Shown here: piece after piece, positions 9,463 through 52,051 of the stretch
How positions within the stretch are numbered: position 1 is the stretch's first letter
Layout of the letters: each line of letters opens with the position of its first letter
NCBI GenBank assembly: GCA_951406725.2
Contig: OX597819.1
Span: 110,608,001-110,672,000, forward strand
Reading direction: 5' to 3'
Length of the DNA: 64,000 nucleotides
From: Octopus vulgaris
Lineage: Eukaryota
Made by a program: the position numbers and the translations under genes
Notes under the pieces: generated by a model
Told to the model about the DNA's origin: nothing
The model's database searches: none
The model's input: the letters and a program-made list of their open reading frames with translations, nothing else

Positions 9463-9518
<56 letters not shown>

Positions 9519-9653
9519 AAAATAGTAAAGTGGGAAAAAACGACAGAAGGCTTAAATGTTAAAAAATATATATATTTGTGTCAAAATGTCTGGAGAATAT
9601 TGGAAAATTTTTTTTTTCCCTTTCCTTAAAATGACATAATTTTAAAATTTTTA

Positions 9654-9693
9654 AAGAAATTACCGGTTTCGCGTGTAGCTTTTCAAATTTCTT
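9654..9693 (-). ncRNA. Minimal type I hammerhead ribozyme, U3-A8 variant (inverted pLTR copy)
   Basis: aagaaat-TTGAAAA-gc(tacac)gc-GAAAC-cg-GTA-atttctt: perfect 7-bp stem I, palindromic ACCGGT helix III. Confidence 0.7.
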
Positions 9694-10042
9694 GTGACGT
9701 TATGTTTATATTGCATGGAATTATCGTTGTTTTTATTTCCAGGAGATTTCTAAATAAGGAGGTAGTGAGTGATTTTTTCCGGTGTAGGGGAGATAATCGC
9801 TTAAAAATTTTTTCCCTTTTCCTTGTTAATTTCTCTGTGTCAGTATGTTCGGATGGTTGAGTCTGGGTTTGTACTTTTCAATGAAGAATGTTTCCCTGTT
9901 CAGTCTCATTTGTGTTGATGATCCGAAAGCACATTGGTAAAATGGGAAGATTAAAAATTGTGGCAGTAGTTGCTTTGCGCATTTCTCAATGTGCTCACTA
10001 AAAGGTATCATTCTATATTCTGGGAATGCAATCTGTTGTCGA

Positions 10043-11998
10043 AACAATACACAATGGAAAGAACTGATAGAACTCCAAAATGATGAAGATATAACCATTA
10101 AGGAAGCGGACAAGGGAAATGCAGTTGTAATAATGGATACATCATACTACAGAAATCTTGTAATTTCCTTGCTTGATGAAGACCTACATTATGAAAAAAT
10201 TACCAACTACACCCCACAAAAAATAATGAAAACTCTATCTTCACTAATTAAAACCCATGAAAAGGAACTGACAACCAAAGAGATTGATTTCCTAACAAAC
10301 TTTAAATGCAAATCTAGCCTTTTCTATGGTCTGCCAAAAATTCATAAAAGTCAAATTATAAATGAAACCATTAAAAAATCACCAAAGACATACATACACA
10401 CACCTAATCCGGGGGACCTAAAACTACGACCCATTGTAGCTGGCCCAACCTGTGAAACACACAGACTAAGTCTACTTATGGACATCCTCTTGAAACCCTT
10501 CCTTAAACATATCGATAGCCATATCAGAGATGACTTAGATATGTTAAACCACCTTCCAAAAAAAACCAAGGAAGAAACAATCCTGGTTTCATTTGATGTA
10601 GTCAACTTGTATACCAGTATACCTCATAATTATGGACTGGAGGCAATACAATTCTGGTTAGACCAATTTCCGGAAGAAATACCAAAAAGGATCAGTAAGG
10701 AATTCATTACTAAATCAATTGAATTCATCCTACACAATAACCACTTCATGTTTGACAATACATTTTACCGTCAAAAATCCGGAATTGCTATGGGTACAAG
10801 GGCAGCACCAGTCATTGCGAACTTAACAATGGGATACATGGAAATAATCATTTACCAGGAATCTCTATCAATCTTTGGAAACTCCCTCTCTCAATACATA
10901 AAAGAGAATTGGAAACGATTCCTAGACGATTGTTTCATTCTCTGGAATGAAAACATAGATAAACTCCTAAAATTTAAAAACCTATTGAACAGCATAAACC
11001 CAAATATACAGTTCACAATGGAATACAACCAAAAGGAGCTCCCGTTCTTGGATATACTAATTTAAAAAATTAACCTTAAAATAGAAACAGACATTTTTTA
11101 CAAAGCCACAGACGCCAAACAATACCTTCTTTTTAATTCATGCCACCGAAGACACACTAAAACAAACATCCCCTTCAACCTTGCAAGAAGGATATGCACA
11201 ATAGTGTCAGAACAAAATACCAGGAACTTTAGACTGCAAGAACTCAAAAACACCCTAATTGACAGACATTACCCAGCTCAACTCATAGAGGATGGGATCA
11301 GACGTGCAACAGAAATCAACATAGAAACTTTAAGAAAAGTTCAACACAACAACACACCTTCCCCGAAAATACTACCTTACATATCTACATACAACCCCAG
11401 AAACAAAGAAGCCTTCACCATCATCACCCAGAACTTACCAATACTTCATAAAAACCCAAAATTAAAGGAAATTCTAAACATACACCAAATCATTAAAAGC
11501 TACAAACAGCCTAAATCACTTAAAAAGATTCTCACAAAGGCAAAATTGTCTTCTAAAATTACGGATGCAAAAGTAAAAAAATGTGGTAGATCGAACTGTG
11601 CAACATGTCCTAACCTATTGGAAGGATCAGAATTCTTCTTTAAAGAGGGACAGAAATTTAAGATCAAATCTAACTTTACTTGTGCCTCTGAAAACATAAT
11701 TTATGTTATTAAATGCTCGGGCTGCCACCAAGACTACGTGGGTTCCACGGGACTATCACTCAGGCGCAGATGCACACTGCATCGACAACAGATTGCATTC
11801 CCAGAATATAGAATGATACCTTTTAGTGAGCACATTGAGAAATGCGCAAAGCAACTACTGCCACAATTTTTAATCTTCCCATTTTACCAATGTGCTTTCG
11901 GATCATCAACACAAATGAGACTGAACAAGGAAACATTCTTCATTGAAAAGTACAAACCCAGACTCAACCATCCGAACATACTGACACAGAGAAATTAA
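10043..11998 (+). pseudogene. PLE reverse transcriptase + GIY-YIG endonuclease with one in-frame stop at 11063-11065
   Basis: ADKGNAVV, YGLPKIHK, LRPIV, SFDVVNLYTSI, GIAMGT, RFLDD, LPFLD; same frame resumes with TDIFYKATD...SCH, Cys linker CGRSNCATC and IIYVIKCSGCHQDYVGST. ORFs 9989 and 11204 share a frame. Confidence 0.92.
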
Positions 11999-12134
11999 CA
12001 AGGAAAAGGGAAAAAAAATTTTTAAGCGATTATCTCCCCTACACCGGAAAAAATCACTCACTACCTCCCCTTATTTAGAAATCTCCTGGAAATAAAAACA
12101 ACGATAATTCCATGCAATATAAACATAACGTCAC

Positions 12135-12174
12135 AAGAAATTTGAAAAGCTACACGCGAAACCGGTAATCTCTT
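12135..12174 (+). ncRNA. Minimal type I hammerhead ribozyme, U3-A8 variant (PLE 3' pLTR)
   Basis: Same motif as 9654-9693 with one mismatch in stem I (atctctt). Confidence 0.68.
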
Positions 12175-12352
12175 TAAAAATTTTAAAATTATGTCATTTT
12201 AAGGAAAAGGAAAAAAAAAAATTTTCCAATATTCTCCAGACATTTTGACACAAATATATATATTTTTTAACATTTAAGCCTTCTGTCGTTTTTTCACACT
12301 TTACTATTTTCTTATATATTCACCCACGTGCTTTACCAAACAAACTTTCTTA

Positions 12353-12395
<43 letters not shown>

Positions 12396-18129: not shown

Positions 18130-19573
18130 ACCTAAGCATAGACGAAAATATATCATATGAAGGCACTGTTAAAAAGATAGAGCGATCCGAGAATATTACA
18201 CCAGACTTAGGAAAATATGGCAGTCAGAACTCTCCTCTTACAAAACAACATCCCACACTGCATTTGCAGTACCAGTGCTGATCCCAACATTTGGGATATT
18301 TGATTGGTCTGTAGAGGAAATCTACTCCATAGATATCAAACCCCGCAAAATTCTGACAACTAGCAACTTCCACAGAAACAGTGATGTTGACAGTCTCTAC
18401 CTAAGAAGAAATAAAGGTGGTAGAGGGCTGAGATCAGTGCAGACGGCCTTCGAATGCCGTATGGTATCACTCAGGCAGCACTTGCTAAACAACAGTAGCA
18501 AAAATATATATATAAATGCGGCGCTGAAAAATGAAGTGAGCAGCATTGTACGAGTTGGTAGTGAGTTCCTCAGGAAGCACTCTTTTCCTAATGATCTCTT
18601 ATACAGTTCCAAAACAGCTGGGCTCCCTTACTTTAGAAAAGGCCTTGATGGGAAGCACTCAGCATAAAAAAAAAATAGATTATGCATAGGTATGTTGCCT
18701 GGAAGCTTGAAGAAGACAGTAGAATTGACACGAAGCACAGCCTCTCTTGGACACAAGACCACTACATCGCACTTTGAAGGCTATGCGTTTGCAATCCAAG
18801 AACAGGAATGCCACAAAGTACCTGGTGAACAAGAGAGACAGTGACGCTCTTGTAATCCCAAGGTGCAACCGCATGTGTAGGTTATGTCATGCTTCTGTGG
18901 AAGACATCACGCATATGATTAGCAGCTGTCCTAAAATGTCGTCACAGTACTACGTCCCTATGCGGCACGATGTTGTTGCTTAAACAATTTACAATGCCAT
19001 CCACAAAAAAGACAGTCCTGAAATAAACTTAGAAAATCCCTGTTATGGAATACATACATAAACACCACTCAAGGAATACTGGTGGAATGTTCCCATCAAA
19101 ACTTCTGTCAAATGTAAACGTAAGAGACCAGATATTGTTGTTTGGGACAGAGGGGCAAAGTTATGTATCAACATAGAGGCCAGCTGCCCTGCAGATATGA
19201 ATATTTCGTTGAAAATCAAAGAAAAAGAGGATATCTATGGACATCTGCAACGAAACCTCCGGCTTCTATATCTAAACTATGAATTTTCATATTCATACCA
19301 ATAATAATTGGTATGAATAATAATACCAATAATAATTGGTTTTGTTAGTAAATGTTTAAAGAAAAATCTGGATAAACTGAGATTTTCAGAAAGAAAAATT
19401 GACAGGCTGATTCTTACATTACAAATCCAATCTGTGAGTGGAACAGTAAAAATATTCAAGACTTTTCTCAAGTTCCAAATGCGAATTTGTCTGTGATAAC
19501 TACATCCCAAAGTTGGAGCCTTGTATCCTTGTTGGAGACCGGCTCCCTCTTCAGTGGAAGATTTATAATAATA
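18130..19573 (+). mobile_element. Decayed 3' portion of an R4/Dong-like non-LTR retrotransposon (restriction-like endonuclease)
   Basis: IDIKPRKIL, LYLRRNKGGRGL, EGYAFAIQEQE, CRLC...ITHMISSC, RHDVVA, RPDIVVWD...IEASCP in shifting frames; ends in taataataa. Confidence 0.8.
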
Positions 19574-23290: not shown

Positions 23291-25053
23291 CCTGCATGTG
23301 ACTCTCTTCTGTATGTTGATATGGGACATGATCAATCCATCGTCTTATAACTATACATGCATACATACATACATACATACATACATACATACATACATAC
23401 ATACATACATACACACATACATACATACATACACATACATACACAGGCACATACACAGAGACGTATGTATGTATGTAAGTATGTATGCGTTTATCTTAAT
23501 GTATTGTGTATATATGCAAATCTATCTATCGTATGTTCTGTCTGTATTTCTGTGTATATATTGGTAATTAGCATTTCCGTCATTTGTGAAATGATCTGGC
23601 GGGTGATGCTGTAAACGTTTGTGGCTTTTAGGTTGTGCGTTGTAATAGAGGGTAGATTTTTGGGCGTATCCGAAGAGCTTTGTTTTTCGTAATTCTTCAA
23701 CATTGCTTTGGCACGTTCTATTCCATTATGTATTAACACTTGTAGTTATTGTTTTTTAGTACTACTTATCTTAATTCCAGGAGTCTTTTAAATAGATAGA
23801 TTTCATAAATAATTCCATGACTGAGACATAACCAAAAAATAAAACAAGCACTCAAAATACACAAAATTATCAAAAGAAGGAATCCTCAAAAATCTACTCA
23901 CTATATGTAAATTTACCCTCCACAAATTCCAACCGAAGTCTGGTCGCTCTAACTGCGGGACTTACATCAACCTCATTGAAGACGAAACGTATAATTTAAA
24001 TAATGACAAATTTTAAAAATAAAATAACATTTTACCTGTTTGTCCCAAACTTTAACATATGCTGTTAAATGTAAAGTATGTAATAAATATTACATCAGTC
24101 AAACGAAACTTACTCTTAGAAATAGACTGACTATTTATGGTCAACAAATATGAGACCCCAGTACTAGAGAGACCCCTCCCTCCTCTACCATCACTGAGTA
24201 GGCACATAGACTTATGTGCAAAAAATAAATCCCCAAATTCCAAGTCTTTCCACTTCACGAATACACGAATAAACAGAGAAAATATATTCATATAAAAATA
24301 GGAACCACGAGAAAATAAACTTTAATGAGTACGTTCTCCAACATCTACTGACAAACAAACTCATTCTGCCACTTGACATGTTAAATGTACACAGTCAACA
24401 ACCTAAATTTGGGGCACAATCACAACTTTTTCTCTCGTAGCACTAACGTTCGAATTAAGTAGAGAACAAAATTTTATGCTAACGCATATACATACAAATC
24501 ATTCATTTAGCCATTGGATATACTAAATCTACAAAGCTTAACTTTAACTTTTTAATAACTTTTGCTGCCTAGATTTATGTACGTCGAATAAGTTCACAAA
24601 ATTCTAAGTCTGTTTATTTCACACTTATTCAAACAATACCGTAATTCAAACACGAGTAAATAAAGAAAAATACAAACCCCAACTCATATAACATCAAGCC
24701 ATATAAACACTAAGCCACGCATAACAAAATTTAATGTTAACTACATCCAAATAATTTCTGACCACTCTAGCATTTTACAGATTAAATTTAGAGAGCCTTG
24801 ATCATTTGGGACCGTCATTTGATACGTTTAGTCAACCGTGCCAGCCTTAACATTCAGCGCAAAGCATATTGTCACATGACATTAACATATAGACCTAGAG
24901 GGAAATTTACAAAAATTTCTAAGCCTAATCACGTGATCATCTTTTACCAGTCAAACTGTATCCTAAACATACTAAACTGAGCCATGTTCTCTCCATAAAT
25001 ACAAGAGAACTTTCGAACTTCAGTCAAGCTCCACGTATTTCTGTCTCGCTTAA

Positions 25054-25091
25054 CTTTAGAAAATCAGCAATAAACTGTGAAACCGGTTAAG
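25054..25091 (+). ncRNA. Degenerate U3-A8-type hammerhead motif
   Basis: ctt-TAGAAAA-tcag(caataaa)ctgt-GAAAC-cg-GTT-aag, same layout as 12135 and 29121. Confidence 0.45.
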
Positions 25092-28903: not shown

Positions 28904-29205
28904 GTGAAAAGGAACACACGAGTTGATATATATGAAAAAACAAGTCAAAAATAGAAAATGCTAAAATAATTTTATAGTGAACATTTCAGTACCGGTTTCG
29001 GTCATTTTGAGACCTTTTCAACTGTAACGATTAAATAATTAAATTTAGAAAAATTAGAAGAAATATTCCTTTAAAAAAACTTTTCTTCTAATTTTTCTAA
29101 ATTTAATTATTTAATCGTTACAGTTGAAAAGGTCTCAAAATGACCGAAACCGGTACTGAAATGTTCACTATAAAATTATTTTAGCATTTTCTATTTTTGA
29201 CTTGT

Positions 29206-29210
<5 letters not shown>
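28901..29210. mobile_element. Fold-back mini-element: perfect 129-bp inverted arms, each with a hammerhead, plus a one-sided tail, in (TA)n
   Basis: Arms 28935-29063 / 29082-29210, 18-nt spacer, unpaired extension at 28901-28925. Confidence 0.88.
29121..29158 (+). ncRNA. Minimal type I hammerhead ribozyme, U3-A8 variant (mirror copy 28987-29024 on minus)
   Basis: cag-TTGAAAA-ggtc(tcaaaat)gacc-GAAAC-cg-GTA-ctg. Confidence 0.72.
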
Positions 29211-30311: not shown

Positions 30312-30921
30312 TATTCTTTTCTACTCTAGGCACAAGGCCCGAAATTTTGGGGGAGGGGGCCAGTTAATTAGATCGACCTCAGTACGCAACTGGTACTTAA
30401 TTTATCGACACCGAAAGGATGAAAGTCAAAGTCGACCTCGGCGGAGTTTGAACTCACAACGTAAAGAAAGACGAAATAGCGCTAAGCATTCGCCCGGCAT
30501 GCTAACGTTTCTTATTTCCTTACTATTCACAAGGGGCTACACACAGAGGTGACAAACAAGGACAGACAAACGGATTAAGTCAATTATATCGACCCCACTG
30601 CGTAACTGGTACTTATTTAATCGACCCCAAATGGATGAAAGGCAAAGTCGACCTCGGCGGAATTTGAACTCAGAACATAGCGGCAGACGAAATATCTATT
30701 TCTTTACTACCCACGAGGGGCTAAACACGGAGGGGACAAATAAGGACAGACAAACGGATTAAGTCGATTATATCGACCCCAGTGCGTAACTGGTACTTAA
30801 TTTATCGACCCCGAAAGGATGAAAGGCAAAGTAGACCTCGGCGGAATTTGAACTCTGAACGTTACAGCAGACAAAACACCGCTAAGCATTTCGCCCGGCG
30901 TGCTATCGATTCTACCAGCTC
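30312..30921 (-). mobile_element. Trimeric SINE family B
   Basis: Three tandem Meta-like cores; junctions match those of the copy at 51443-52051. Confidence 0.88.
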
Positions 30922-51442: not shown

Positions 51443-52051
51443 AGGCGGCAAGCTGGCAGAAACGCTAGCGCGCCGGGCGAAATGCTTAGCGGTATGTCGT
51501 TAAGTTCTGAGTTCAAATTCCACCGAGGTCAACTTTGCCTTTCATCCTTTCGGTGACGATTAAATAAGTATTAGTTACGCATTGGGGTCGATATAATTGA
51601 CTTAATCCGTTTGTTTGTGCTTGTTTGTCCTCTCTATGTTTAGCTCCTCGTGAGTAGTTAAGAAATAGGCATTTCGTCTGCCGCTACGTTTCGAGTTCAG
51701 ATTCCGCCGAGGTCGACTTTGCCTTTCATCCTTTCGGAGTCGATTAAATAAGTACCAGTTACGCACTGGGGTCGATATAATCGACTTAATCCCTTTGTCT
51801 GTCCTTGTTTGTCCCCTCTATGTTTAGCCCCTTGTGGGCAATAAAGAAATAAGAAACGTTAGCGCGCCGGGCGAAGTGCTTAGCGCTATTTCGTCTGTCT
51901 TTGTGTTCTGAACTCAAATTTCGCCGAGATCGGCTTTGCCTTTCATCCTCTCGGGGTCGATAAATTAAGTACCAGTTGCGTACTGGGTTCGATCTAATCG
52001 ACTGCTCCCCTCCTCCAAAATTTAGGGCCTTATGCCAAGAGTAGAAAATAA
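51443..52051 (+). mobile_element. Trimeric SINE family B with 12-bp TSD
   Basis: Three cores; tttcagttttga at 51431-51442 and 52054-52065. Confidence 0.9.

Follow-up and report, generated by a model that had tools for sequence, protein, structure and literature searches.

A Penelope-like element and the motif in its terminal repeat

The window, that is, the whole 64,000-nucleotide stretch of the Octopus vulgaris genome that was analysed, harbours a broken, Neptune-like Penelope-like element (PLE) on the forward strand. A 5'-truncated reverse transcriptase (RT) frame (10043..11065) matching Pfam RVT_1 (E 6.6e-8) is closed by a premature stop at 11063-11065, and the rest of the RT-endonuclease (RT-EN) frame (11066..11998) encodes the thumb, a C-x4-C-x2-C linker and a GIY-YIG domain with CCHH. 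Next comes the 3' pLTR (11999..12358), which carries a hammerhead motif ca. 140 nt past the stop of the RT-GIY-YIG frame and ends in a 42-nt tail (12317-12358) followed by (TA)n. RVT_1 scored above the Pfam cut-off and GIY-YIG below it, with E values of 0.012 in the window and 1.5e-4 in the relative P0002; the Cys and His residues of CCHH were read from the translation. On the other side of the RT frame lies an inverted, 5'-truncated copy of the element's own 3' end (9512..10042, reverse strand), which ends in (TA)n without the tail and whose left end was placed by the +149 boundary described below. Such an inverted copy is a usual feature of PLE layouts.

The organization of a complete unit is provided by locus L141, whose direct hammerhead copies lie 3,996 nt apart, on either side of ORF1 and RT-EN, so that the motif is found in both pLTRs. 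A separate upstream ORF of ca. 450 aa (P0001; L141 4644-6128, reverse strand) precedes the RT-EN frame; it has an Asn/His/Thr-rich C-terminal part and no Pfam match. Locus L136 has this two-frame layout as well. With the predicted cut as the reference point, 13 of 53 distinct 3' ends fall at +149 and 21 at +191, and insertion occurs into (TA)n, with TA-rich sequence in 37 of 38 distinct 3' flanks. The CX2-5CxxC linker is common to Neptune and Nematis (PMC8557442), and the frame at 11066-11998 carries a matching one. Together with the two 3' ends, which match the two-site tail signature of PLEs (PMC11167929), and the TA-rich flanks, this linker makes the label "Neptune-like" a fair one, set by motifs, the tree described below being built from this genome's copies only. 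The name Neptune given by the first-pass annotation thus fits by motifs but is not separated from Nematis.

With its 5' truncation, a stop within the ORF and a mismatch in stem I, the window copy is likely inert; in addition, a read-through transcript would trap both pLTRs in an inverted duplex of ca. 530 bp. In contigs of run X2, guessed to be RNA, A>G and T>C letters occur across the pLTR (window 12117-12184), including A7, A8 and A9, and the changes at 12139, 12140 and 12148 are absent from X16, a run of great depth that carries the label of another organism. These letter changes look like A-to-I editing of the inverted-repeat duplex, a tentative reading that depends on the guessed kind of run. 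Elsewhere in the window, two further open frames on the forward strand (1498-2337 and 18173-18667) resemble what we take to be 3' remnants of non-LTR retrotransposon ORFs. In addition, a pair of 384-nt inverted repeats (30489-30872 and 51492-51875), 88% complementary and 20.6 kb apart, likely represents two copies of one dispersed repeat.

The motif at 12135..12174 (forward strand) reads as the layout of a type I hammerhead whose core is UUGAAAA, and the parse proposed in the first-pass annotation was confirmed on the sequence. The two strands of stem I (12135-12141 and 12168-12174) enclose the core U3-U4-G5-A6-A7-A8-A9 (12142..12148, with U3 at 12142 and A8 at 12147), a stem II of 2 bp (G10.1-C11.1 and C10.2-G11.2; GC/GC) with a 5-nt loop (12149..12157), and G12-A13-A14-A15.1 at 12158-12161, followed by CCGG, U16.1 at 12166 and A17 at 12167. 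Positions 12161-12166 form a 6-nt palindrome, ACCGGU, that is predicted to build stem III in a dimer, the predicted cut lying after 12167. The boxes expected of the core (Y3-UGAN-R8-A, GAAA and UH) and a Watson-Crick pair between positions 3 and 8 are all found in 12135-12174, as is a 15.1-to-16.1 palindrome permitting a dimer. Stem II has the G10.1-C11.1 pair and is only 2 bp long, its second pair changing from C-G to U-A in one subfamily. The strict min-HHR subtype lacks loop 3 and has an additional base ahead of 10.1 as well as a long helix II; the present sequence, in which loop 3 has 2 nt, positions 9 and 10.1 are adjacent and stem II has 2 bp, is not assigned to it.

A C at 12170 disrupts the third stem I pair (12139:12170) of the flagged copy. 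This base is private to the window copy among 31 motif matches, which came from 29 of the 30 best family loci; TTGAAAA occurs in all 31 and the intact 40-mer in 29. Stem I has 7 bp in the window's inverted copy (9654-9693) and in 30 of the 31 family matches, and one mismatch in the flagged copy. Single copies fold no better than shuffles (z 0.43 and -0.04), so the case for a hammerhead rests on comparison between families and not on folding energy. As the first-pass annotation had anticipated, searches for CUGANGA are blind to the motif, which this pattern cannot match. Rfam likewise returned no hammerhead match on 12060-12260 at E<=10, and none among the best 150 of 740 matches for the 64-kb window.

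Recurrence and variation of the U3 core

Hammerhead motifs occur elsewhere in the window as well. The inverted pLTR copy carries an intact hammerhead with a 7-bp stem I (9654..9693, reverse strand). The TTGAAAA layout that the first-pass annotation had noticed at 29121 with other stems is real: it spans 29121..29158 (forward strand), has a 3-bp stem I and a 4-bp stem II with no ORF at the site, belongs to a second U3-A8 PLE family (F2), and has an inverted twin (28987..29024, reverse strand) that was missing from that annotation's list. A DNA search with 29083-29210 found nothing, and the family was located by pattern instead. The decayed version reported at 25054 (25054..25091, forward strand) belongs to an older U3-A8 family and has A at position 4; it reads TAGAAAA here and TTGAAAA in 16 of 24 aligned relatives (hand count). 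About 800 nt upstream of it, a GIY-YIG remnant (23995..24261, forward strand) shares 39% identity with the window's endonuclease.

Pattern counts were made on the genome contigs (G000) with a reversed-pattern control; they include no stem test and miss forms without C15.2-G16.2. The U3-A8 pattern TTGANAA-N8-24-GAAACCGGTA gave 6,745 matches against 35 for its control, and the pattern specific to the window's family 2,119 against 0, so the motif recurs far above chance. With the anchor GAAACCGGTA, U3-G8 gave 224 matches (control 13) and C3-A8 109 (control 15), the latter being ca. 1.4% of the U3-A8 count; with GAAACCGGTH as anchor, C3-G8 gave 310 (control 41). No dominant sequence was seen among the 100 C3-A8 matches listed, which, like their low share, is what would be expected of stray mutants. 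The apparent twenty-fold excess of U3-A8 over C3-G8 was rejected as an effect of the anchor, which favours U3 families, since broader patterns reverse the order. The first-pass annotation had suggested counting the two cores in PLE pLTRs; here, patterns based on GAAAC-N0-2-GTH gave 34,726 matches for C3-G8 (control 3,427) and 28,387 for U3-A8 (control 9,507), that is, ca. 31,000 and ca. 19,000 above control. The U3-A8 core thus accounts for ca. 38% of the motifs counted with these broader patterns, and the view that it is rare is not supported for this genome.

Comparison between families was based on 21 representatives hand-picked from fetched loci, which are related and therefore do not count as independent events. 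Stems I and II vary in sequence and keep their pairing, the 2.1-1.1 pair occurring as U-A, G-C, A-U and C-G. A perfect palindrome lies between A15.1 and U16.1 in all 21, in six kinds; N7 varies, as a hammerhead allows, and N17 is A, C or U, G being excluded by the search pattern. The combination at 3 and 8 is U-A in 14 representatives, C-G in six and U-G in one. A joint change of the two positions is illustrated by two tandem repeats: L195 (G000:C1:8132500-8137000) is a tandem 361-bp retrozyme-like repeat with U3-A8 hammerheads, and L069 (from loci L065-L071) a tandem 359-bp repeat with a C3-G8 hammerhead. Both are homologous outside the ribozyme (z 6.4, a score reached by 0 of 500 shuffles), which makes this a direct case of positions 3 and 8 having switched jointly. 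Rfam gave no hammerhead match on L195 2500-3050.

These comparisons bear on the simplest alternative, in which an A/T-rich pLTR sequence fell into this arrangement by chance and was amplified with the element. A single copy that folds no better than shuffles and lacks an Rfam match would suit it; however, at least six families of PLEs and two of tandem repeats share the architecture with different stems, it matches a published class, and the compensatory changes between families contradict a chance origin, which we regard as scarcely credible.

The distribution of the core among elements was examined with 24 of this genome's thumb-endonuclease pieces in a tree rooted at the midpoint, from which no order of events is claimed. 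One clade of 17 rows (support 100/99) holds every sampled ORF-linked U3 family, L226 having been labelled after the tree was built. Seven rows lie outside it. Of these, L217 and L220 represent a family with a C3-G8 core, and the five others yielded no credible hammerhead call; only one outside family is therefore labelled in the tree, the families without assignment including L216, L223 and L229-L232. In line with the PLE lineage proposed by the first-pass annotation, the U3 core marks a single, well-supported clade among the elements of this genome. Assignment of a C3-G8 family (L140) to a close RT relative was rejected, since the ORF of that relative is followed by a U3-A8 pLTR of its own.

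Two families call for separate mention. The outside PLE family of L217 and L220, to which L215, L224 and L227 also belong, has amplified although core position 4 is C (CCGAAGA); relatives such as L219 have CUGAAGA. In the other, an abundant C3-G8 family (L127, L128, L139), the stem III region is not palindromic, GAAA is preceded by a long gap, and copies are often arranged as close inverted pairs; it misfits a simple type I parse.

Variation within the U3 clade is not limited to compensated changes. One identical sequence makes up 57 of the first 100 U3-G8 matches listed (hand count); it represents a young U3-G8 sister subfamily, ca. 96% identical in protein and with one stem I base missing, which has a full tandem unit in L136 and a 775-aa open frame in L137, with cores at -6259 and -2282 in L136 and at +6438 and -1612 in L137. 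Hand counts on the first 100 of the 2,119 matches of the window's clade revealed that base 1.1 is missing in 46, leaving an extra U before the core, and that G8 occurs in nine, all of them among these 46; position 3 is U in 99, and N17 is always A or C, although the pattern left it free. The amplified U3-G8 subfamilies imply that position 8 changed alone in lineages that later spread. An origin of U3-G8 by reverse transcription of A-to-I-edited RNA was rejected for want of genomic support, sense-strand A>G changes amounting to 29 per 1000 sites against 53 for T>C. The covariation of positions 3 and 8 put forward by the first-pass annotation is therefore upheld by the joint U-A/C-G switch (L195 vs. 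L069) and the scarcity of C3-A8, but not by the U3-G8 subfamilies, in which the independent variation that it had named as contrary evidence is partly seen.

Predicted folding and cleavage

We consider it probable that 12135-12174 is a type I U3-A8 hammerhead motif in a PLE terminal repeat, and that in intact elements cutting of the RNA after GUA would be slow and would require a dimer or the assistance of the element's protein. This reading draws on the layout, the pLTR location, the spread and the clade marked by U3 cores as they are seen here, and it takes from published work that U3-A8 can substitute for the C3-G8 core pair. The ACCGGU palindromes of two copies would pair to give a double hammerhead, and two intact 40-mers co-fold in this form at a predicted -15.5 kcal/mol, against -4.0 per monomer. 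The lowest co-fold form also closes U3-A17 (open form, -14.1), a pair given a probability of 0.73 by RNAfold. A C3-G17 pair was reported to be inhibitory (PMC3884650), and U3-A17 would by analogy be its counterpart. Slow cutting is predicted because this pair and a stem II of only 2 bp would damp the rate; occasional cutting after GUA would then trim or circularise tandem transcripts.

A more active molecule, working efficiently as a monomer in its natural context, might be suggested by the 7-bp stem I, which forms with a probability of 0.93 in the intact copy. Yet stem III would consist of 2 bp around a 2-nt loop and is absent from the monomer fold, and published PLE monomers were inactive (PMC4209133), making this option very unlikely.

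The 5' ends of genomic copies are not piled at the predicted cut: none of 30 ORF1-bearing copies starts there, and 20 read through. Only one of 120 distinct 5' ends lies within -5..+6, vs. ca. one expected from the local density (37 ends in -400..-6 and 15 in +7..+140). Templates that were never cut and templates that were re-ligated would both yield this pattern, which offers no hint of cutting. Four of the 30 ORF1-bearing copies (L244, L250, L260 and L262) start at +193..+199, just beyond the +191 tail end. These starts were rejected as proof of a circular template, being non-discriminating: two of the four have unit lengths that point to a 3' end at +149, so that a pause site or a transcription start would account for them equally well.

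The flat 5' ends are also what would be seen if the motif descends from a hammerhead whose cutting no longer matters in the clade, being kept as a folded or protein-bound pLTR element or simply carried along. This possibility, which we hold to be clearly the less probable one, gains from the amplification of the U3-G8 and shifted-stem-I subfamilies and of the outside family with C at position 4, and from catalytic mutants of an Anolis element that were unimpaired for insertion in vitro (PMC11167929). On the other hand, U4, G5, A6, A9, G12-A14, U16.1 and the palindrome are fixed across families, in part because the patterns required them, while the proteins of those families are only 52-57% identical over the thumb-endonuclease part. 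The restriction of N17 to A or C at a position free in the pattern and the joint switch in the tandem repeats equally speak for constraint. The slowly cutting dimeric or protein-assisted hammerhead is retained as the best explanation, counting against it the U3-G8 and 1.1-lacking subfamilies, the U3-A17 closure, the 2-bp stem II, the flat 5' ends and the dispensability of cleavage for insertion of the Anolis element in vitro.

A bolder proposal holds that U3-G8 wobble cores and extra-U cores are working natural ribozyme variants driving recent PLE bursts, with A-to-I editing of core adenosines in inverted-repeat RNA tuning or silencing them. We consider it doubtful and offer it as speculation.

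Relation to known hammerheads and significance

The U3-A8 core is already in print for PLE hammerheads, and the window provides a further example; the novelty implied by the first-pass annotation does not hold. The C3-G8 core pair has a natural U3-A8 version that is active in vitro (Perreault et al. 2011, PMC3088659), and Cervera and de la Peña (2014, PMC4209133) described Schistosoma mansoni PLE hammerheads with "U3-A8 instead of C3-G8", ca. 1,300 hits that had been missed by their first descriptor; the supplement includes a PLE-linked UUGAAAA example. In that study, monomeric PLE hammerheads were inactive and multimeric ones had low activity. For the Anolis PLE hammerhead, cleavage depends on the element's protein and is dispensable for insertion in vitro (PMC11167929).

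The closest systems share part of the features found here. The S. mansoni Cercyon PLEs have U3-A8 in the pLTR, a type I layout, a 15-16 palindrome and more than 1,000 mostly solitary copies (PMC4209133). In contrast, stem III of the octopus motif retains a loop of 2 nt (6-nt palindrome), no base is inserted between 9 and 10.1, stem II has 2 bp in the window's family, and both host and PLE clade differ. The small palindromic helix III and the dimer model are shared with the PLE hammerheads of Drosophila, rotifer, shrimp and mosquito, a subtype for which the accessible part of PMC4209133 does not list U3-A8. The hammerheads of Perreault et al. have the same compensatory pair but are not tied to PLEs in the corresponding part of that paper (PMC3088659). 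The Anolis Poseidon element PAc likewise has a pLTR hammerhead, two 3' ends defining a tail (+149/+191 here) and no ends at the cut; it differs in its C3-G8 core, its Poseidon clade and its protein-assisted cleavage, which was tested in vitro (PMC11167929). Finally, the tandem repeats L195 and L069 recall metazoan non-LTR retrozymes, with their tandem type I hammerhead repeats of ca. 360 bp (PMC7229834; bioRxiv 10.64898/2026.07.22.740005), although L195 carries U3-A8, a core that goes unmentioned for retrozymes in the accessible text of these two sources.

A literature search on Penelope hammerhead ribozymes in octopus gave a single paper, which deals with Naiads, and searches for U3-G8 or UUGANAA gave no title of relevance. 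No U3-G8 PLE families and no U3-A8 retrozymes were found in these searches of incomplete coverage, by which their absence from print is not established.

The value of these observations is mainly practical and stems from how large the blind spot is here. Descriptors limited to CUGANGA, as well as Rfam, would miss about one third of the hammerhead-like motifs counted here, including those of a whole, recently active PLE clade. Near-identical sister subfamilies that differ in U3-A8 or U3-G8, in A17 or C17 and in the presence or absence of base 1.1 also constitute a ready panel for asking whether cleavage matters for PLE transposition.
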